14,381 nt of DNA from an uncultured Gammaproteobacteria bacterium (GTDB lineage Bacteria > Patescibacteriota > Patescibacteriia > UBA2591 > UBA6264), in contig CAZDOL010000002.1 in NCBI GenBank assembly GCA_964507075.1, forward strand, positions 1 through 14,381, in the 5' to 3' direction. The position numbers and the translations under genes are program-made. Below are positions 77 to 11,890 of the stretch, piece after piece; position 1 is the stretch's first letter, and each line of letters begins with the position of its first letter. Below the pieces are notes generated by a model that was not told the origin of the DNA, ran no database searches, and was given only the letters and a program-made list of their open reading frames with translations.

Positions 77-772
77 TTACCTGTGTACCTGATTACCCAA
101 TCTCCATTCTGTAATTTCTTTATGATTGCCCGACAATAGAACTTTCGGTACTTTCAACTTTTTAATCTTAGCAGATTTAGTTTTATATGTAAAGACCTCT
201 GGTCTAGTATATTGAGGATACTCGAAATTAATTGTTGATTGTTGATTATTGATTGTTGATTGATTAAAACTCTCTTCTCTTAATGATTCTTTATTTATAA
301 CGCCAGGAAGTAGCCTGGTTATAGCATCTACCATAATCATAGCGGGCAATTCTCCTCCTGTTAAAACATAATCTCCAATTGATATCTTTTTATCAACTAA
401 TTTTTCTACTCTAGCGTCTACTCCCTCATAACGACCACAGATAAAAATAATCTTATCTAATTTAGAAAATTGATAAGCCATTTTTTGATCAAACTTCTGG
501 CCCTTTGGGGTTAAAAGAAAAATCTTTTTCTTTTTACTTTTTGTTTTATTTAAAGACTTCAAAGCTTTATAGATTGGCTCTACTTTTAAAATCATACCTG
601 GGCCACCACCATAAGGTGTGTCATCGACAGTTTTGTGCCTATCTGTTGTCCAAATTCTTAAATCATGAATTTTAATTTTAATAAATTTTTTCTCTTGGGC
701 TCTCTTTAAAATAGATGTCTGAAAATAAGATTCAAAGATGTGGGGAAAAATTGTAATAATATCAAATTGCAT
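77..772 (-). CDS. trmD: tRNA (guanine37-N1)-methyltransferase TrmD
   Basis: ORF 77..817 is trimmed to the internal ATG at 770-772, because MQFDIITIFPHIFESYF is the canonical TrmD N-terminus. TrmD motifs are present: DDTPYGGGPGM, GRYEGVD, GGELPAM, EYPQYTRP, LLSGNH. The 15 upstream codons are not TrmD-like and run into the intergenic hairpin region. The gene sits in the classic rpsP-KH-(rimM)-trmD context. Confidence 0.9.
   Translation of the reverse strand: MQFDIITIFPHIFESYFQTSILKRAQEKKFIKIKIHDLRIWTTDRHKTVDDTPYGGGPGMILKVEPIYKALKSLNKTKSKKKKIFLLTPKGQKFDQKMAYQFSKLDKIIFICGRYEGVDARVEKLVDKKISIGDYVLTGGELPAMIMVDAITRLLPGVINKESLREESFNQSTINNQQSTINFEYPQYTRPEVFTYKTKSAKIKKLKVPKVLLSGNHKEITEWRLGNQVHR
231..265. 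repeat. Heptanucleotide tandem repeat (ATTGTTG on +, AATCAAC on -), about 5 units, inside trmD
   Basis: The + strand reads attgttg attgttg attattg attgttg attg att. On the coding strand this encodes NQSTINNQQSTIN, inserted between the conserved EESF and FEYPQYTRP segments of TrmD. Confidence 0.75.
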
Positions 773-2868: not shown

Positions 2869-3801
2869 TTAAAACTCACTATTAATATAATCCCGTAGAG
2901 CTTTCTTCCAAGAACGGGCAGAAGAAATCTTAGTATTTCTCAATATAGAATAATTTGGCCTAGGAGCAGGCCTAGGATATTCTCTTGACGCGCAAGGAAC
3001 TATCCTGGCTACTGGCTTTTTAATAAAACCATATTTCAGGCCTTGACGAACGATTTCTTTGGCAAAGGTATACCATGTTGTTCGTCCTTTATTAGTAAAG
3101 TGATAGAAACCAAAGGGAAGATTATTGTCTAAAATTTCTTTTGTTTCTTGAGCTAAATCTAGAGTATAAGCAGGTGAACCGTGTTGATCATTAACCACTT
3201 TCAATAAAGGACGTTTCTCTGCTAAATCTAGAATGGTGCTAACAAAATTTTTGCAGGGAGTAGCCACTGAAGGGCCGAAGAGCCAAGCTGTTCTAATAAT
3301 ATAATATTTCTCTAACTTAGATTTAACGACATTCTTTTCTCCCAATGTTTTGGACCTACCATAAGCATTAAGAGATCTCTGTTCGTCATTCTCAGAATAA
3401 CCCTTTTTTTTCTGACCATCAAAAACATAATCTGTGCTGTAATGAACCAGCGTGGAATTCAAATTATAACATATTTCTGAAAGATAATTAAGGGCATTAC
3501 CGTTAATTTCATTGGCCGTGTCTTCATCATCTTCTGCCTTATCAACGTCAGTATAAGCAGCAGCGTTAATAATAATATCTGGCTTTAAAGAGTTTATTTT
3601 ATTTTTTAATACTTCTTTGATTGTAATGTCAATTTCTTCTCTATCCCATGCCGTTATATTTGCTCCCTGAAAAATCTTTTTTAAATCAGAGCCCAACATT
3701 CCTTTAGCTCCTAATATTAAAATTTTGGGGGGCTCTTGCCTGCCCAATGGGAGCGTAGCGACTTTACGGGGTTTCTTGTTTTTTACATTTTTGGCAAACA
3801 T
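2869..3801 (-). CDS. rmlD: dTDP-4-dehydrorhamnose reductase (RmlD) with atypical ~25-aa N-terminal extension
   Basis: The Rossmann motif ILILGAKGMLGS, the STDYVFDG and YGRSK (catalytic Y-x3-K) motifs and the C-terminal W..AL..Y motif are all RmlD-like. The start is uncertain. The only in-frame ATG (3799-3801) overlaps the infB 3' end by 19 nt, and the extension is encoded largely by GC-rich repeat copy A. An alternative TTG lies at 3745-3747. Confidence 0.8.
   Translation of the reverse strand: MFAKNVKNKKPRKVATLPLGRQEPPKILILGAKGMLGSDLKKIFQGANITAWDREEIDITIKEVLKNKINSLKPDIIINAAAYTDVDKAEDDEDTANEINGNALNYLSEICYNLNSTLVHYSTDYVFDGQKKKGYSENDEQRSLNAYGRSKTLGEKNVVKSKLEKYYIIRTAWLFGPSVATPCKNFVSTILDLAEKRPLLKVVNDQHGSPAYTLDLAQETKEILDNNLPFGFYHFTNKGRTTWYTFAKEIVRQGLKYGFIKKPVARIVPCASREYPRPAPRPNYSILRNTKISSARSWKKALRDYINSEF
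3734..3778 (-). repeat. GC-rich interspersed palindromic element, copy A (35-nt core 3739-3773 flanked by a 5-bp direct repeat)
   Basis: The minus-strand core is AACCCCGTAAAGTCGCTACGCTCCCATTGGGCAGG. It matches copy B at 31 of 36 aligned positions. CAAGA (TCTTG on +) abuts both ends, at 3734-3738 and 3774-3778. It is a GC island in AT-rich DNA. Confidence 0.6.
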
Positions 3802-5801
3802 TCAATTTCTTTATAAACTTCTAAAATATCGTTTTTTTCAATTTTTGTTTTACCTAAAAGTTTTAATCCACATTCCGTTCCAGCTAAAACTTCTTTGACG
3901 TCTTGTTTGCTGCTTTGAATTTGAACTAATTTAGACTCTCCTTTTATCTCATTTTCTCCTTCTGAATTTAACCGCCAAATTCGAGCAATGGTCTCGGGAA
4001 AAATTTTACCCTTTAAAACTTTTCCTCCCAGAATAGCTTCCTTCCCTGTTTGACGAAAAACTTCTAAGACCTCAATCTTACCCAATTTTTTTTCTGAAAT
4101 TTCCGGCTTAATTAAAGATTTCATAAAATCCTGAACATCTTCTATAAGCTTATAAATAACCTCATATAAATCCATTTTTATCTTTGATTCTTTTATCAAT
4201 TGTTTAACTGAATTATTAACCTTAATATTAAAACCAATTAACCATGATTGAGTAGTTTTTGCTAATTCTACATCGGCTTCAGTCAAGCTCCCTAATCCAG
4301 ATTTAACAATTCTCACCTCTACATTAGGGCAAATTAGACCCTTCAAACTCGTGATTATAGCTTCTAATGACCCAAGCACATCAGCGCGAATGATAACATT
4401 AACATATTCTGTGTCTTTTTTAGAAGAAGATACTTGATCTAAGGATAATGCTTGGTCAAAATGAGCTGAATTCATTTGTTTAATTTGAGATTTAAATTCT
4501 TTACCCTTATTAACAACTTCTACTAAATCACCTACCCCAGGAACCTCTTTTAAGCCGAATATCTGAGCTGGAAAACTGGGTTCAATCTTTTCTACAAATT
4601 CACCATATTGATTTTTGGCATATTTTAATCGACCATAAGTTTGTCCTGCAACAATATTATCTCCCTTCTTTAAGGTTCCATTATAAACAATAATTGTTGC
4701 TACTGGGCCTAATCCTAAATCTAGATGACTTTCAATTACAGTACCTATTAAGTCTCCTTCTGGATTGGTTAATAATTTATCTTTCTCTAAATCTGCTATT
4801 AAATTAATCATATCCAATAAATTATCCAGGCCTTCTTTACTTTTGGCTGAAACTGACACACAAATTATTTTACCACCCCAATCTTCAGGCAAAAGGTTTA
4901 TTTCTGATAAACCTTTTTTAATTTTTTCCGCATCAGCTTCTGCTCTATCAATTTTATTAATAGCAACAACAAAAGGCAATTCTTCTTTCTGAATAACCCT
5001 AATAGATTCCAATGTTTGAGGTTGTATTTTATCATCAGCAGCTATGACCAAGATTGCAATATCAGCAACTGCACCACCATGAGCACGCATGGCTTCAAAA
5101 GCTTCGTGTCCAGGAGTATCAATAAAAGTAATTAACCTATCTTTATATTTTGTTTGATAAGCTCCGATATGTTGAGTAATCCCACCTTTTTCTTTTGCAA
5201 CAATTTGACTTTCTCTAATGGCGTCTAAAATTGAACTTTTACCATGGTCAACATGTCCCATAACCACCACGATAGGTGGCCTTGAAACTATTTTTTTCTT
5301 GTCCTCTGTTTTTAAAATATCTTTTACCCTTTCCTTGGCAGAAATAGATACTATATTCTCCACCTCTTCTTCTTTTGCCACTTCAAAACCTAAATTCTCA
5401 GCTATGATAGCTGCTATTTCATAGTCTAAGTTTTCGTTAATACTAGAAAGAACTCCATTTTTAATGAGTTCATTCATTACTTTCATAACTGGCAATTTTA
5501 ATTTTTCTGCTAAATCATAAACTCTTATTAATTGAGGCAAATTTACTAACTTAGGTTTTTCTTCCTCATTACTCTCTTCCTCTAAGGATTCTTTTGCGTA
5601 TGCCTTATTTATTTTAGCTTCTATCTTCTCTATTTCTTTTTCTTTTTTTCTATTTTCTTGCCACATTTCAACTACTTGCATGGCCTGTTTTTCTGGAATC
5701 TGAATAGCTCTTGCTCCAATATGAAAACCGAGCTTAGGTAATGCTATTTTAAGCTCTTTTGGGGTAATCTTTAACTTTCTAGCAAGTTCTGTAATATTCA
5801 T
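3783..5801 (-). CDS. infB: Translation initiation factor IF-2
   Basis: There is an IF2 N-terminal domain (MNITELARKLKITPKEL). The G-domain motifs GHVDHGKS, DTPGHEAF and NKID are present, and the C-terminal IF2 domains run to the end. The product is 672 aa. Confidence 0.93.
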   Translation of the reverse strand: MNITELARKLKITPKELKIALPKLGFHIGARAIQIPEKQAMQVVEMWQENRKKEKEIEKIEAKINKAYAKESLEEESNEEEKPKLVNLPQLIRVYDLAEKLKLPVMKVMNELIKNGVLSSINENLDYEIAAIIAENLGFEVAKEEEVENIVSISAKERVKDILKTEDKKKIVSRPPIVVVMGHVDHGKSSILDAIRESQIVAKEKGGITQHIGAYQTKYKDRLITFIDTPGHEAFEAMRAHGGAVADIAILVIAADDKIQPQTLESIRVIQKEELPFVVAINKIDRAEADAEKIKKGLSEINLLPEDWGGKIICVSVSAKSKEGLDNLLDMINLIADLEKDKLLTNPEGDLIGTVIESHLDLGLGPVATIIVYNGTLKKGDNIVAGQTYGRLKYAKNQYGEFVEKIEPSFPAQIFGLKEVPGVGDLVEVVNKGKEFKSQIKQMNSAHFDQALSLDQVSSSKKDTEYVNVIIRADVLGSLEAIITSLKGLICPNVEVRIVKSGLGSLTEADVELAKTTQSWLIGFNIKVNNSVKQLIKESKIKMDLYEVIYKLIEDVQDFMKSLIKPEISEKKLGKIEVLEVFRQTGKEAILGGKVLKGKIFPETIARIWRLNSEGENEIKGESKLVQIQSSKQDVKEVLAGTECGLKLLGKTKIEKNDILEVYKEIECLPKM

Positions 5802-5855
5802 AATTCCAATATTTTAATGTTCCAATGTTCCAATGTTCTCATGCTCTAATGTTTT
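5800..5855. repeat. Octanucleotide tandem repeat (AATGTTCC on +, GGAACATT on -), about 7 units, spanning the vanW 3' end, the spacer and the infB start codon
   Basis: The + strand units in 8-nt register are ataattcc, aatatttt, aatgttcc, aatgttcc, aatgttct, catgctct and aatgtttt. The array encodes the VanW tail TLEHENIGTLEH, which has 8-aa periodicity. It also forms the whole 12-nt spacer before the infB ATG. Confidence 0.7.
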
Positions 5856-7652: not shown

Positions 7653-8146
7653 CCTGAAACTTTAATATTTTTTTGGCCATCAACATCTTCTGCCTTGGGT
7701 AAAATTATTTTTAAAATGCCATTTTTAAAATTAGCTTTAACATCATTAGGTTTAATTGGACAAGGCAAGATTAAAGTTCTAGAAAATTTTCCCCAAAAAC
7801 ATTCTTGATAATAATAATTCAAGTTTTCTTTTTGATTTTTAACCTGAGATCTACTTCCACGAATAACAATTAAATCTGGCTCGGTAATAATATCTATATC
7901 CTTAGCTTGTACGCCAGCAATCATTGATTCAATGATTAAACAATCATCATCTTCATAAATGTCAACCGACAACTGACCCTGACTTTCTTCTGGCAACCAA
8001 TCTTCAGTGCTTTCCTCTTCTTTCTTGCGGGGTTTTTTCATTTTTTTAATTTTGGCATCTTCAACCCCTGCAATAATACTAACCTCTTCTCCTTGCTTAT
8101 TGAGAAGCTCTTGATTTAAACCTGATATTTTACTCCAAAAACTCAT
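7649..8146 (-). CDS. Small heat-shock protein, Hsp20/alpha-crystallin family
   Basis: The alpha-crystallin domain reads GQLSVDIYEDDDCLIIESMIAGVQAKDIDI...FSRTLILPCPIKPNDVKANFKNGILKIILPK. The product is 165 aa. Confidence 0.87.
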   Translation of the reverse strand: MSFWSKISGLNQELLNKQGEEVSIIAGVEDAKIKKMKKPRKKEEESTEDWLPEESQGQLSVDIYEDDDCLIIESMIAGVQAKDIDIITEPDLIVIRGSRSQVKNQKENLNYYYQECFWGKFSRTLILPCPIKPNDVKANFKNGILKIILPKAEDVDGQKNIKVSG

Positions 8147-8165: not shown

Positions 8166-9395
8166 CTAATAAAAATAAACTGGATAAATTTTTCCGCAAT
8201 CTATAATTTTTTCGTTAATATTTTGATAACTTAAATAGACGTCTATATCAGGATATCTATTCTTAAAAGACTCCACTGAACTGAATTTTGCGCTTTTCAA
8301 ATAGGCCTTTGATTCTATTGCTATAGTTCTGCCATTACCTAAAAAAATGATAAAATCAATCTCATTCTTTTTCTTATCACGCCAAAAGTTGAATTTATAA
8401 TCATTTTTAATGAATTGTTGAGCTAATCCATTTTCCAGCAATAACCCTTTGTCTGGTCTTGTGTCTAATTTTCTAAAATCATCAACAATAAAATTTCTTA
8501 ATCCTGTATCTAAAAAATAAACTTTAGGATTTTTAACAATTTCAGTTCTTCTATTTTTAAAATACGGCCTCAAAAAACTACATATATAAGTTTTTTCTAA
8601 AAAATTCAAGTATTTTTTCAAAGAAGGATAAGAATAACCCGATACTTGAGATAATTCCTGATAATCTAATAAATTTCCTACTTGCAAAGCAAGCGCTTTT
8701 GTTAAATTATTCAATTTATAATCATCAATCAGACCCAATATATCCCTGACCTCCCTTAAAAAATAAGTGTTATAAATATTACGCAGGAGTTCTTTCTTTG
8801 CATCATAACTATTCTCTAAAACAACGCGTGGATAACCTCCGAAAAGCAAGTGCTCTTCATAATAATGTAATAATTTTTTATGAGCCTCCGTTCCTATGCT
8901 TATTTGAATGTCTTTAAATTGTTCAACTAATTTTCTATTCTTTTTATATATCTTTAAGTAATTCTTGTCCTTAGCTGACAAAAACTCTTGAAAATCAAAT
9001 GGATAAAGATTAAAGATTAAAACCCTGCCAACTAAATATTTTACCGCTCTAACGCTTAAATCAATTGCAGAAGATCCTGAAATTATAATTTTTATTTTCT
9101 GAGAATCAAAGATGTACTTAAGTGTCTTGCCTCCATTTTTTGCATATTGGAATTCGTCAATAAATAAATATTTGTTTCCTTTTATGTATATATTTATAAA
9201 ATCATCCGTTTGATTTTCAAACATTCTTAATATATTTTGGTCATCAAAAGAGATAGAAACAGCATTGCTAAGATTTTTGATTAAATGATTAATCATTGTG
9301 GTTTTTCCTGTTTGACGAGCGCCCGTTATGGCAATTATCTCTCTAGCGTCCAAATACTTCAAAATGGTACTCTCTAAATTACGCTTAATATACAT
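8166..9395 (-). CDS. AAA+ superfamily ATPase, COG1373-like (AAA_14 plus DUF4143 architecture), function unknown
   Basis: A Walker A motif (ITGARQTGKTT) and a Walker B-like motif (YLFIDEFQ) are present. At 409 aa, the length and C-terminal region are typical of the DUF4143 ATPase family. By eye the gene is more AT-rich than its neighbours. Confidence 0.8.
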   Translation of the reverse strand: MYIKRNLESTILKYLDAREIIAITGARQTGKTTMINHLIKNLSNAVSISFDDQNILRMFENQTDDFINIYIKGNKYLFIDEFQYAKNGGKTLKYIFDSQKIKIIISGSSAIDLSVRAVKYLVGRVLIFNLYPFDFQEFLSAKDKNYLKIYKKNRKLVEQFKDIQISIGTEAHKKLLHYYEEHLLFGGYPRVVLENSYDAKKELLRNIYNTYFLREVRDILGLIDDYKLNNLTKALALQVGNLLDYQELSQVSGYSYPSLKKYLNFLEKTYICSFLRPYFKNRRTEIVKNPKVYFLDTGLRNFIVDDFRKLDTRPDKGLLLENGLAQQFIKNDYKFNFWRDKKKNEIDFIIFLGNGRTIAIESKAYLKSAKFSSVESFKNRYPDIDVYLSYQNINEKIIDCGKIYPVYFY

Positions 9396-9434
9396 AAAAT
9401 TTGCATATCGTTACTATAATTAAACTATACGTCA

Positions 9435-9463
9435 ATTATAGTTCCATCTTATATTTTTGTCAA
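9435..9463 (-). promoter_or_regulatory. Perfect-consensus sigma70-type promoter (TTGACA-17-TATAAT) upstream of the ATPase gene
   Basis: The minus strand reads TTGACAaaaatataagatggaacTATAAT. The -35 box is at 9458-9463 and the -10 box at 9435-9440, separated by a 17-nt spacer. The start codon is about 40 nt downstream. An 8-bp inverted repeat CTATAATT/AATTATAG (9434-9441 and 9414-9421) overlaps the -10 box. Confidence 0.6.
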
Positions 9464-9469
9464 TACATG

Positions 9470-9517
9470 CTAATGCCTGCCCCGTGGGAGAGGTAGCGAC
9501 TCTACGGGGTTCTAATG
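9470..9517 (-). repeat. GC-rich interspersed palindromic element, copy B (36-nt core 9476-9511 flanked by an exact 6-bp direct repeat)
   Basis: The minus-strand core is AACCCCGTAGAGTCGCTACCTCTCCCACGGGGCAGG. It forms a hairpin through CCCCGU/ACGGGG and AGAG/CUCU pairing around a 7-nt loop. CATTAG (CTAATG on +) abuts both ends, at 9470-9475 and 9512-9517. Confidence 0.65.
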
Positions 9518-9520
9518 ACT

Positions 9521-11743
9521 TTAGTCCGCTTTCATTGTTGCAACACTAACGCCTCCGTGAAAACTACGAGAATAAGAATGAAACTGTGAAACAGGATCGC
9601 CAGATGGAGCAAAAATATTAATTTGTGGTTCTTTAGAGCCATTAGGAGCTACAATAATTTCTACCTTATTGTCTTCATCAAAATCAGCAGTTGCTATATT
9701 AGTGCCGTGATAAAAATCTTTAGAATAAGCCAAAAATTGTAAACGCAATAAAAGTAATTTAGAATCAAAAACTCTGATATAAGCAGATGCTTCTGAAGCA
9801 ACGCTTGCTAAAATTTCATTTTGGCCATCTCCATCTACATCGCCTATTGCAACATCAACACCACCTAAGAAATTTTTATTAAAAGCAAAAAAGTGGAATT
9901 TAATATTACCTTGACCATCAAAAACTCTAATATGAGGGCCACCGCCTGGGCCAGCGCCAGTTACAATCTCCTCTTTGCCGTCTCCATCTACGTCGCCCAC
10001 AGCTACATTAACGCCACCCTTGAAATTTTTATGATAAGCAAAAAAATCAGCTTTTATGTTCCCATTAATATCAAAAACTTTAATATTGGAATTACCATTA
10101 GGCCCTGGGGCTGTAATAATCTCATCTATTCCATTCCCATCTACATCGCCCACAGCTATATTAACACCACCCCTAAAACTATCATCATAAGCAAAGAATC
10201 CACCCTCAGGATAGCCGCCTACATTAAAAACTCTAACATGAGGGCCACCGCCTGGGCCAGCGCCAGTTACAATCTCGTCTTTGCCGTCTCCACTAACATC
10301 TCCAGCTGCAACCTGAACTCCACCTCTAAAATTTTCATTGTAAGCAAAGAATCCGCTTAAAGGCAATCCTGCTGAGTCAAAAACTCTAACATGAGGGCCA
10401 CCGCCTGGGCCAGCGCCAGTTACAATATAATAAGATTGATGCAATGTTCCCAACTGACTATATGCATAATCAATAGTAGCGTAAGCGTTTACCCTTCCTC
10501 TGCCTAATTGTCCTTCCAAACCCGGATTAAAAGCATCAATATCATCGGCATGATTTAAAATAAAATCTTGAACTTGCTTTTGACTAAAAAGGGGATTTAC
10601 AGACCAAACCAAAGCTGCTAAGCCCGAAACTATAGGCGCGGCAATTGAGGTTCCTGACCAATAACCGCCATAATATTCTCTGTAATTCTCATAATTAGGG
10701 TTATAAGCTAAAGCTCCATAAATTCTGGTTCCAGGAGCGGAAATATCAACGCATATACTGCCAAAATCAGAAAAAAGCGCTTTGTGGTCAGTGTCATCTA
10801 GGGCCGCCACGCCAATGATAAAATTTTCATCATCATCTTCGTCCAAACATATGGGATAATTTGGATTTTCATTAAGATTTACTGGCTGATTTACTGTTTC
10901 ATTACCAGCAGCTGCGACTACAATCACTCCATTTTTCCATGCCTCTTTCAGGGCTTCTGCCAAGAAAAAACTCTTGCTGGTGCCAACAAAACTTAAATTT
11001 ATAATCTTAGCTCCATTATCAACTGCATAACGAACGGCGCGAATAACATGCTCCACACTCCCTGTGCCCTGACTATTTAAAACTCTAAGAGGCATAATCT
11101 TACTGTTCCATGCCAAACCAGTGATTCCTTCGTTGTTATTTCCAACTGCCGAAGCAATGCCAGCAACTAAAGTTCCATGATGAATACCACTTTCATTATA
11201 ATCCTCGTCAAATTTTGGCTTAGGATCAAGGGTGCTCCTTACAAAATCCCAACCACGCAAATCATCTATATAACCATTATTGTCGTTGTCCTTTCCGTCT
11301 CCTCGTATTTCGTCTTTATTCAACCATATATTTTCTTTTAAATCAGGATGGTCAATATCAACGCCTGTATCTAAAATAGCAATAACAATATCTTGATTTC
11401 CTCCTTTAGTAAAATCCCAAGCTTGAGGAGCTTTAATTTTGCCCAAATACCACTGTTGGTCATATAATAAATCCGCGGGAATAAAAGCAGCTTGAAAGGA
11501 ATAATTTGGCTCAACATAATCCACTAAAGGCAAAAAAGAAAACATTTTCTCCATTATCTTAGCGAATAAAGGATTAACTGGAATCTTATAAATCTCCTGT
11601 TTGTTTTTTAATCTAACCAAAAGTTCATTATGTCCCGAACCAGAAACATTAAATGGAATAAACGAAAACAAGGTGAGTAAAAAAATACTCAACAAAAAAA
11701 TAACTATAATTTTCTTTCTCTTAAAAAACATCATAATGGTCAT
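9521..11743 (-). CDS. Secreted subtilisin-like serine protease (peptidase S8) with I9-like propeptide and C-terminal FG-GAP/VCBS-type repeat propeller
   Basis: The catalytic triad contexts are ILDTGVDIDHPDL (Asp), HHGTLVAGIA (His) and GTSIAAPIVSG (Ser). The start is set at ATG 11741-11743 because MTIMMFFKRKKIIVIFLLSIFLLTLFSF is a classical signal peptide; ATGs at 11734 or 11731 are equally possible. The 46 upstream ORF-track codons run through the GC-rich structured spacer and look non-coding. Confidence 0.85.
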   Translation of the reverse strand: MTIMMFFKRKKIIVIFLLSIFLLTLFSFIPFNVSGSGHNELLVRLKNKQEIYKIPVNPLFAKIMEKMFSFLPLVDYVEPNYSFQAAFIPADLLYDQQWYLGKIKAPQAWDFTKGGNQDIVIAILDTGVDIDHPDLKENIWLNKDEIRGDGKDNDNNGYIDDLRGWDFVRSTLDPKPKFDEDYNESGIHHGTLVAGIASAVGNNNEGITGLAWNSKIMPLRVLNSQGTGSVEHVIRAVRYAVDNGAKIINLSFVGTSKSFFLAEALKEAWKNGVIVVAAAGNETVNQPVNLNENPNYPICLDEDDDENFIIGVAALDDTDHKALFSDFGSICVDISAPGTRIYGALAYNPNYENYREYYGGYWSGTSIAAPIVSGLAALVWSVNPLFSQKQVQDFILNHADDIDAFNPGLEGQLGRGRVNAYATIDYAYSQLGTLHQSYYIVTGAGPGGGPHVRVFDSAGLPLSGFFAYNENFRGGVQVAAGDVSGDGKDEIVTGAGPGGGPHVRVFNVGGYPEGGFFAYDDSFRGGVNIAVGDVDGNGIDEIITAPGPNGNSNIKVFDINGNIKADFFAYHKNFKGGVNVAVGDVDGDGKEEIVTGAGPGGGPHIRVFDGQGNIKFHFFAFNKNFLGGVDVAIGDVDGDGQNEILASVASEASAYIRVFDSKLLLLRLQFLAYSKDFYHGTNIATADFDEDNKVEIIVAPNGSKEPQINIFAPSGDPVSQFHSYSRSFHGGVSVATMKAD
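9524..10429 (-). repeat. Six tandem ~51-aa FG-GAP-like blades with near-identical DNA segments
   Basis: The protein repeat unit is IVTGAGPGGGPH(V/I)RVF..G....FFAY...F.GGV.VA.GDVDGDG..E, present six times, with the last two copies degenerate. The DNA segment aaaactcta(a/t)(c/t)atgagggccaccgcctgggccagcgccagttacaat recurs at 9921-9970, 10227-10276 and 10380-10425. Confidence 0.8.
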
Positions 11744-11890
11744 AAACGTCAGTCCCGGGGACTGGCTCCGACCTGCCCGCCTTGCTTTGCAAGGCGAAGC
11801 GGGCGGGAGGTGCCTGTCCCCATTTAAAACGTCAGTCGTTAAAGAGGAGCGAAGCGACGGGAAAACGTCTGACGTTGACATTAATAAAAA
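11744..11890 (-). repeat. Compound GC-rich structured element cluster (related to copies A and B) filling the gyrA-protease spacer
   Basis: Hairpin 1 spans 11828-11876, with 13-nt arms paired at 12 of 13 positions. Hairpin 2 spans 11757-11821, is 65 nt long and has a CCUUGC-aaa-GCAAGG apex. An exact 11-nt direct repeat AAACGTCAGTC lies at 11744-11754 and 11827-11837. GCGAAGC occurs twice, at 11794-11800 and 11849-11855. The termini CCCG... and ...GGGCAGG/GGGACAGG are shared with copies A and B. Confidence 0.5.

Follow-up and report, generated by a model that had tools for sequence, protein, structure and literature searches.

A REP-like family of 33-34-nt GC-rich hairpin elements, apparently mobile, in Patescibacteria-like and Neomarinimicrobiota genomes

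What is a short GC-rich island doing between two genes of an AT-rich, Patescibacteria-like genome, and how did it get there? The window analysed here, a stretch of 14,381 nt, has a GC content of 34%, as compared to 70% in the island at positions 9476-9511 (CCTGCCCCGTGGGAGAGGTAGCGACTCTACGGGGTT, read directly from the window). The window genes all lie on the minus strand, in the order TrmD, KH protein, S16, glucose-1-P thymidylyltransferase, RfbD, IF-2, VanW, Hsp20, DUF4143 ATPase, S8 protease with FG-GAP repeats, and GyrA. The initial annotation described the island, hereafter copy B, as a 36-nt palindromic element bracketed by exact CTAATG repeats (9470-9475 and 9512-9517), with a second copy at 3739-3773 (copy A, CCTGCCCAATGGGAGCGTAGCGACTTTACGGGGTT) that matches it at 31 of 36 positions with one gap and is adjoined by a repeat of its own, TCTTG (3734-3738 and 3774-3778), at boundaries equal to those of copy B. 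The sequence confirms all of these features. A match of this type did not arise once in 200 shuffles; copies A and B are two of the three intergenic GC islands in the window, and both are present in all 19 contigs of the source population, which are at least 99.5% identical. The annotation proposed an undescribed, non-autonomous MITE/REP-like family that inserts with target-site duplication; the family and its mobility fare well below, the duplication does not.

When set beside 23 family members and the empty sites, the mobile core measures 33-34 nt and the terminal TT falls to the flank; the flanking repeats of both copies are consequently 7-8 nt long. On the plus strand, the 34-nt core of copy B (9476..9509) consists of a 4-nt tail, CCTG, followed by an imperfect hairpin, CCCCGT..ACGGGG, and is a variant of the 33-nt family consensus. 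Its left flanking unit, TGCTAATG (9468..9475), includes the CTAATG noted earlier, and its right unit, TTCTAATG (9510..9517), starts with the TT once assigned to the core; the two units are identical at 7 of 8 positions. The 33-nt core of copy A (3739..3771, plus strand) lies within the long reading frame of rfbD/rmlD, between the plus-strand units GCTCTTG (3732..3738) and TTTCTTG (3772..3778); TTTCTTG also flanks the core at locus L021 and the third genomic copy in L044. Copy B forms the hairpin drawn for it, modestly beyond shuffles (RNA, -13 kcal/mol, z -1.7; DNA, z -2.7), whereas copy A, in which a CG>AA change disrupts the stem, remains unfolded (z > 0). "Palindromic" thus fits copy B and the family consensus, not copy A, which reads as an old, partly decayed copy. 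A further copy suggested by a repeat finder at 8025-8057 is merely an 8-mer within the Hsp20 gene.

The family has the consensus CCTG-CCCCGT-GGGAGCGTAGCGACTTT-ACGGGG, 33 nt in length, and comprises 23 distinct copies in AT-rich Patescibacteria-like contigs and Neomarinimicrobiota genomes. A first scan, with the 3' half of the core and one genome per species, returned 7 matches, 2 in another Patescibacteria MAG and 5 in two Neomarinimicrobiota genomes; a second scan, of metagenomes with an independent central pattern, added 20 more loci. The core-bearing Neomarinimicrobiota contigs encode molybdopterin oxidoreductase, acyl-CoA dehydrogenase, ETF and SufB, a gene content that is not of the candidate phyla radiation (CPR) type. 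The cores neighbour ordinary housekeeping genes, e.g., those for TsaD, CTP synthase, PBP and Mur ligase. The third source-genome copy, degenerate at 26/33, lies 13 kb past the window on the same contig; three copies occur in 31 kb of the source contig, three in an 86-kb contig, and four that match the exact search pattern in one Marinimicrobia MAG. An HMM search of the collected loci for degenerate copies found the known copies plus those in L037 trmD and L044 only. The core was not found in viral contigs, annotated phage records or plasmid records, Rfam gave no relevant match at E <= 1 in the window or in six related loci (tRNA and tmRNA apart), and the searchable literature contained nothing relevant on the core sequence or on MITE/REP elements in Patescibacteria. 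These results support the view that the core represents a previously undescribed, dispersed, non-autonomous repeat family, as the initial annotation had supposed.

The intact members share one design. Their outer stem, CCCCGT(A)/(T)ACGGGG, is 6-7 bp long and encloses a bulged inner section in which tandem G.A pairs may form; GCGTAGC occupies the centre. In the Marinimicrobia type, an extra A pairs with the T that is bulged in the other type. A hairpin in L032 has the ends of the core (CCTGCCCCGTAG...CGGGGTT) and a different interior. Conversely, the central motif, GGAGCG(A/T)AGCGAC, recurs in an element with a different 13-bp stem, found in the window at 11826-11879 and with relatives in L021, L037 and L038. 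Fold energies calculated with nearest-neighbour parameters are modest relative to shuffles (z -1.4 to -2.7); it is the conserved design, not energy, that carries the structural argument. The sequence GCGNAGC is known as an unusually stable "mini-hairpin DNA" motif (PMC13037366), and the central GCGTAGC of the core fits it. Orientation relative to flanking genes is mixed, with about 11 copies antisense and 8 sense, and the L028 contig holds cores in both orientations. Taken together, the mixed orientation and a cap that stands out in DNA, not in RNA, point to a structure that would act at the DNA level.

Orthologous sites provide evidence of gain, loss and decay. Syntenic relatives, identified through their IF-2 homologues, are L040 (94% identity), L036 (89%), L037 (85%), L039 (81%) and L038 (80%). 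Copy B is absent from the orthologous site in three of them, L036, L037 and L038. On the gene-sense strand, the window reads agtCATTAG-AA-[34 nt]-CATTAG, L037 reads AACATTAGAACATTAGAACATT and L036 reads CATTGGAATATTGGAACATT, neither with a core; the L037 site, CATTAGAACATTAG, is identical to the window minus 34 nt. Copy A is progressively decayed in L036, L039 and L038, with 63% identity and mostly C>T and G>A changes in L036; the site is core-free in the closest relative, L040 (CAAGAAACAAGAAACAA), and in L037, where a different small hairpin is present. Copy A would thus be old, unconstrained and cleanly lost in one lineage. The rfbD long ORF is open across copy A in five lineages, and copy A probably encodes the N-terminus of RfbD. 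A third case is found in trmD, which carries a 33-nt core in frame in L037, its decayed remnant in L038, and an empty site in the window, L036 and L039.

The cleanest event is seen within the population itself. A 21-nt hairpin, CCTGCCTACCGGACAGGCAGG, unrelated to the core, is present in L005 and L006 and missing from the window and five other contigs of the same population. Its empty allele in the window is at 243/244, inside a plus-strand heptamer array of the GATTGTT type in trmD (224..262), so that this hairpin too is located at a unit boundary of its own array. The indel corresponds to the hairpin exactly, with no microhomology and with unchanged flanks. Whether a given difference reflects insertion or excision we infer from few relatives. 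Under AT pressure old copies erode, and orthologous copies diverge in this way, whereas copies from unrelated sites, or from different phyla, hardly differ from one another. Copying, not selection in place, thus keeps the family going, a pattern that reads as the signature of a selfish repeat. Presence/absence, found at the orthologous sites of copy B, copy A and the trmD core, and decay in place, found for copy A and the trmD core, are seen instead of the conservation expected of a structured RNA. Together, these comparisons support a mobile, non-autonomous element.

The flanking sequences follow a rule, although not the one first supposed. The left flank ends in TG in 18 of 23 copies (background 0.06) and the right flank begins with TT in 15 of 23 (background 0.12): the core is located at TG^TT, exactly on the unit boundary of short tandem repeats whose units take the form TT....TG in 7-8 nt, with lengths that vary from 7 to 9 nt overall. 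Tabulation of the flanks revealed an abutting repeat (at least 7/8 or 6/7) in 10 of 23 copies (background 0.003) and no repeat at all in 8 of 23. The units often form arrays on one or both sides of the core, e.g., CCAATGTT x3 in L028, CTAATGTT x4 in L022, GACTTTG x3 in L033 and GTGTTCAA xn in Marinimicrobia. Core-free sites in relatives, which were sought as evidence of insertion, do exist; yet at L036, L037 and L040 they retain tandem repeats, short arrays of (TTNNNNTG)n type. Arrays without a core also occur at window positions 5800-5850, L016 6923-6954 and L017 1130-1153. The one in the window (5800..5850, plus strand), some six octamers of the TTCCAATG type at the VanW stop/IF-2 start, is of the same kind as core-holding arrays elsewhere and differs or is missing in relatives. 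Particular units recur: TTCYAATG flanks cores at unrelated loci in the window, L016, L022 and L028, and TTCAAGTG flanks all Marinimicrobia copies.

The two boundary-exact duplications, taken initially as the hallmark of target-site duplication, are consequently not a secure argument. Flanking units persist in tandem at empty sites and in core-less arrays, the 21-nt indel leaves its flanks unaltered, and unit sequences recur at unrelated loci, which is unexpected for duplications of random targets; simple target-site duplication is probably not what made the flanking repeats. Mobility of the element is supported independently, by the other evidence above. Three scenarios would fit the arrays: duplications made upon insertion and left after excision, duplication-free insertion at a motif multiplied by the array, or arrays built by out-of-register rejoining at a cleavage motif.

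How, then, might such an element move? The explanation that probably holds, though with real room for doubt, is that copy B belongs to a family of 33-34-nt, GC-rich, imperfectly palindromic, REP-like, non-autonomous insertions; of the possible mechanisms, mobilization in trans by a Y1/HUH enzyme seems the best guess. The element would move as a folded single DNA strand comprising the 6-7-bp GC stem, the internal G.A/bulge region and the GCGTAGC cap; a Y1/HUH transposase of the RAYT or IS200 type, supplied in trans, would precisely cut it out and paste it. Tandem arrays would be either by-products of cleavage and rejoining or a preferred target, with unit boundaries coinciding with the insertion point. 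A clean, hairpin-only indel is the expected product of HUH "peel and paste" chemistry.

Enzymes of this kind are at hand. The window lacks a transposase, as initially stated, and a Y1 (IS200/RAYT-like) transposase gene lies on the same contig, 4.2 kb past its right end and 9 kb from copy B. The 250-aa protein has an HFH motif and a GPYKSK tyrosine. It exceeds the cut-off of Pfam Y1_Tnp (30.9 bits; cut-off 23) but not that of the NCBIfam REP-associated tyrosine transposase (38 bits; cut-off 80). A 47-nt hairpin precedes the gene, and ACCCGTCGGGTTAGTCA and tandem 13-mers follow it. Homologues number in the hundreds and are mostly from Patescibacteria; one, at 63% identity, is labelled Marinimicrobia. 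One homologue-bearing contig has three Y1 paralogues in 20 kb, each with several copies of its own GC-rich hairpin on both sides and short tandem duplications adjoining. Each paralogue thus has REPs of its own, as in the classical RAYT/REP arrangement, and these genomes do run REP/RAYT-type systems. In another core-bearing organism, a Y1 gene located 5-9 kb away is flanked by an AT-rich hairpin.

The tie between the core and any one enzyme is looser. In the source genome the cognate Y1 hairpin is ACCCGNCGGGTTAGTCA, in L029 AATTTATCCRTATATTGGATAAATT; no Y1 gene in the loci analysed is flanked by the core (those of L041/L044, L029/L019 and L043 have other hairpins), and none lies within 5 kb of a core in about 25 loci. 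The initial annotation had suggested a search for RAYT/IS200-like or other transposases with ends matching the core, and none was seen in the loci examined: about 30 loci contained no DDE transposase and no IS with matching ends. A link of the core to a Y1 transposase is thus tentative, perhaps somewhat less probable than its absence. The REP-like model also has to contend with the other hairpins carried by the Y1 genes in view, with tandem arrays that known Y1 transposition does not explain, and with a CCTG/CTTG tail, solitary copies, non-uniform orientation and a modest fold. A bolder possibility, which we consider unlikely, is a new, minimal class of single-hairpin DNA transposon, 33 nt long with a GCGNAGC cap, that HUH chemistry would cut and paste at TG^TT, building arrays as it goes. 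Such a transposon would invade coding sequences in frame and would have passed from one to the other of Patescibacteria and Marinimicrobia, perhaps during contact between episymbiont and host.

One rival, built on the target-site duplication of the initial annotation, is a classical MITE moved by a staggered-cut DDE transposase, with true 7-8-bp target-site duplications and with core-less arrays as footprints of insertion and excision at a preferred target, TTNNNNTG. This model accounts for repeats that abut fixed boundaries in 10 of 23 copies, for the perfect 8/8 TTCCAATG pair in L016 with one unit per side, and for empty sites that carry at least two units; the arms of the hairpin could serve as fused terminal inverted repeats. 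It is nonetheless improbable. Units are 7, 8 or 9 nt long, 8 of 23 copies lack any repeat, and unrelated loci share unit sequences; excision by bacterial DDE enzymes does not as a rule leave duplications intact; a 33-nt core could not accommodate a pair of transposase-binding ends of normal size, and on the left it has an unpaired CCTG; and the 30 or so loci surveyed contain no DDE transposase gene. Of the compound label MITE/REP-like, the mobile, REP-like half is therefore retained, whereas the MITE half, lacking both the terminal inverted repeats of an IS and a DDE gene, is not.

Equally improbable is that no dedicated enzyme is involved and that cores spread and are lost by replication template switching or gene conversion between short arrays, using 6-8 nt of microhomology, with the hairpin stalling the fork. 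The clustering of flank types (TTCYAATG; TTTCTTG; TTCAAGTG in Marinimicrobia), the position of cores always between array units and the polymorphism of array length among relatives would follow naturally. However, the junctions of the 21-nt population indel lack microhomology, array-free copies exist in L010/L011, L027, L032, L034 and trmD of L037, loss by slippage should delete one unit while both are kept in L040 and L037, and spread across phyla with differing array units needs something more. Precise cutting and pasting of a folded strand by a Y1/HUH enzyme remains the preferred reading.

The position of copy B invites a different idea, that the host retains it as a working signal in RNA or DNA, whether by binding a protein, by stabilizing mRNA as a hairpin, or by acting as terminator or insulator between the protease gene and the ATPase promoter. 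Copy B is intergenic and just past the protease stop codon (9521-9523), 6 nt from a consensus -35 box; it can form a hairpin, and its sequence is highly conserved across genomes. As the initial annotation stated, it separates that stop from a strong promoter, TTGACA-17-TATAAT (9463..9435, minus strand), which is a 12/12 match to the sigma-70-type consensus, belongs to the DUF4143 ATPase cassette and lies 6 nt from the right-hand repeat unit in the gene sense. Everything else makes a kept signal very unlikely: gene-relative orientation is mixed (about 11 antisense, 8 sense), Rfam has no match, three relatives have the same gene junction without copy B, copy A and its orthologues have eroded without restraint, down to 63% identity, and some copies lie within coding sequence. 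Neither copy A nor copy B has a terminator-like site; an intrinsic terminator was rejected because the GC stem at either copy lacks a T/U run, the transcribed strand continuing CAGGCAUUAG. For the RNA stability or insulator hairpin raised initially, nothing speaks in favour once mixed orientation, the missing U tail and the decay of copies are considered. The element probably has no host function, and the one likely effect of copy B is a neutral one, to space the ATPase promoter from the protease stop.

The ATPase gene beside copy B is itself part of a translocated cassette that spans TTGACAA to AATAATTTA, promoter included; in L037, where its protein is 91% identical, the cassette is found elsewhere, again adjoining hairpin elements. 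That relocation next to hairpins with the GGAGCGTAGCGAC motif, a synteny break directly after an array in L026 vs. L030, and the resemblance of the integron crossover point to the core junction, G^TT, could suggest an attC-like folded-DNA recombination site that bounds mobile cassettes, but this is just as remote, since attC sites measure 57-141 nt as compared to 33 nt, the right flank GTTCYAAT is unlike GTTRRRY, no integrase is nearby, most copies sit between housekeeping genes in conserved order, and the point where cassette homology begins is the -35 box and not the core.

Two other identities were considered and rejected. A TIGR array consists of 5-15 tandem units (edge repeat, 9-nt spacer A, loop repeat, 9-nt spacer B) beside a Tas (Nop-domain) gene (PMC12045711). 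TIGR-Tas arrays are found in Patescibacteria, with units 36 nt long; the core copies are solitary, constant along their full length and without variable spacers, and no Nop-domain gene accompanies them. Two inverted cores in MAG187 were also tried as the bounds of a transposon, and the ORF between them has no Pfam match.

The window holds other GC-rich hairpins. The element that shares the central motif of the core, as GGAGCG(A)AGCGAC, is C1 (11826..11879, plus strand), with its 13-bp stem formed by AACGTCAGTCGTT/AACGTCTGACGTT; in L036 nothing occupies its site, and in L038 a decayed copy does. Adjoining it is C2 (11744..11837, plus strand), bounded by AAACGTCAGTC repeats, to which the spurious N-terminal extension of the protease ORF is due. 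The two make up a GC island that separates gyrA from the protease gene (11744-11879) and that L036 lacks. A mir-540 match on the C2 hairpin was judged spurious.

Genomes of the candidate phyla radiation are tiny and streamlined, and are thought to be poor in mobile elements; turnover of 21-54-nt hairpin insertions from strain to strain would be a cheap source of variation. Such insertions lengthen reading frames, are found within proteins and mark points of rearrangement, and they cause annotation errors, as with the false protease N-terminus and the rfbD start. A near-identical 33-mer in two phyla suggests DNA traffic between Patescibacteria and Marinimicrobia. To our knowledge, how REP-type hairpins insert is unsettled even for the REPs of E. 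coli, and the strict TG^TT junction with its array context offers a testable handle on the process.

Among known systems, bacterial MITEs (Correia, RUP, Nezha) are likewise short, non-autonomous, repeated and hairpin-capable, with short direct repeats; they differ in having 50-400 nt, two transposase ends and a fixed duplication length, whereas the core has 33 nt and a single hairpin, with repeats that can be found in its absence as well. Terminal inverted repeats that match an IS are absent, the sole inverted repeat being the hairpin, with an unpaired CCTG at one end. IS200/IS605 elements and their palindrome-associated derivatives (PATEs) insert and excise precisely, in a hairpin-dependent and duplication-free manner, 3' of a short target motif, behaviour that agrees with the ..TG^ rule and with the clean gain or loss of 21 nt within the population; by contrast with the core, they have two different subterminal hairpins, exceed 100 nt and are not found in tandem arrays.

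Rickettsia palindromic elements are also palindromic insertions in a small AT-rich genome, found between genes and in frame and decaying in place; in-frame insertions here are the 33-nt core in trmD of L037 and the 21-nt hairpin in trmD of L006. They are, however, 100-150 nt long and confined to Rickettsia, while the elements described here are 21-54 nt, GC-rich and array-associated. The GC clusters of yeast mitochondria are 30-50-nt GC-rich palindromes in AT-rich DNA, optional between strains, flanked by short target repeats and sometimes in frame in a gene (var1). They resemble the core in being small GC palindromes in AT-rich DNA with repeated flanks, and differ in belonging to an organelle and in their unrelated sequence; we know of no transposase for them and of no comparable tandem-array context.

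REP/BIME elements (E. coli; the REPINs of Pseudomonas) are, like the core, 30-35-nt imperfect GC-rich palindromes with a conserved 4-nt 5' tail, dispersed, mostly intergenic and non-autonomous, and the RAYT-like genes of core-bearing genomes are each flanked by their own hairpin family. A 20-40-nt palindrome that can fold as a single strand is present in the consensus and in copy B (6-7-bp stem, GC-GTA-GC cap). The differences lie in detail: the REP tail is GTAG, which in the core occurs inside the loop only, as compared to a core tail of CCTG/CTTG in 20 of 23 copies and CGTG or TTTA in the rest; REPs often form close inverted pairs, whereas core copies are solitary, embedded at TG^TT in 7-9-nt tandem arrays and common to two phyla; and a REP has a cognate, flanked RAYT, while none was found flanked by the core. 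Without the GTAG tail and cognate RAYT of REPs or the features of MITEs, the core falls outside any named family, yet it is of the small palindromic-repeat kind, and in how it works it is most like a REP.

The rfbD/rmlD start must lie upstream of KILILGAKGMLGS, the Rossmann motif (window 3700-3801). The long ORF, whose ATG overlaps the IF-2 stop, reads through copy A of the 33-nt GC-rich core hairpin, and the frame is open in four syntenic relatives (L036, L038, L039 and L040; 302-310 aa); because the frame is kept open across the element, copy A may be translated as part of rfbD/rmlD.

Hairpin elements also affect the called start of the protease gene. The called ORF, 786 aa, begins within GC-rich hairpin elements (MSTSDVFPSLRSS..) at 11740-11881, and this call is an annotation artefact of hairpin-element insertions. 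Since the proteases of relatives are 737-739 aa long, the true start is probably at the MTIMMFFKRKK / MMFFKRKK methionines near 11740. The sole Rfam match in the window, to mir-540 (11757-11821; 28.5 bits, E 0.11), coincides with the GC-rich hairpin C2 and was rejected as spurious. Farther along the gene, four to five tandem 153-nt repeats (9763-10426), up to 96-98% identical, code for FG-GAP blades, and SNPs among population members concentrate in these repeats (10006, 10013 and 10289). Another SNP cluster, at 572-655, accompanies an altered trmD in one population member, L005. There a single-base deletion at the position matching window 555 breaks the gene into two ORFs, of 73 and 141 aa, which may reflect either a pseudogene allele or a mistake in the assembly.

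The DUF4143/AAA_14 ATPase gene and its consensus promoter occupy different places in the window (8166-9463) and in L037 (430-1740), with 91% protein identity, and the protease-Hsp20 junction lacks them in L036, L037 and L038; gene and promoter together are a translocated cassette. The GyrA intein appears to be optional: the 972-aa GyrA of L037 (2386-5304) matches the Pfam families Intein_splicing and PT-HINT, whereas the window GyrA (828 aa) has no Pfam intein match.

The contigs L026 and L030 agree over the core and some 75 nt on its left, then diverge completely immediately past the right-hand ATGTGTTATGTG array of short tandem repeats, which places a synteny breakpoint at the array. In L034, the anticodon loop of a tRNA-Arg(GCG)-like sequence (4769-4871; Rfam tRNA, 33.8 bits) holds an inserted core (ttg, then TTTACCCCGT..ACGGGG, then cggt); its T arm is odd, an intact tRNA-Arg adjoins it (4896-4969), and the interrupted sequence may represent an intron-like arrangement or else a pseudogene that has been disrupted. 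Immediately 3' of the genes for tRNA-Pro, tRNA-Ala and tmRNA, in L017 (6742-6870), L018 (~4740-4862) and L020 (~4830-4953), lies a module of ~110 nt bounded by CCACGT repeats. It comprises two hairpins, of which the first covaries and the second is the core, together with ACCGCGGYCACGTGG, and the whole looks like a larger composite element targeting tRNA-type 3' ends. In L021 (950-1110), direct repeats of ~40 nt (gaccccagtggtgggcggaacgcgctcctctggRgtca) lie on both sides of a C1-type hairpin element; these repeats are members of another hairpin family (GACCCCAG..CTGGGGTC), also clustered at L037 220-430.

The contig L043 (1-20720) carries three Y1 transposase paralogues; it is labelled Marinimicrobia at NCBI, yet its gene content is CPR-like (giant Laminin_G_3 proteins, pilin, NYN). 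It also contains a long (GA)n run and a reverse transcriptase adjoining an FGE-sulfatase-fold gene, an arrangement that is DGR-like.
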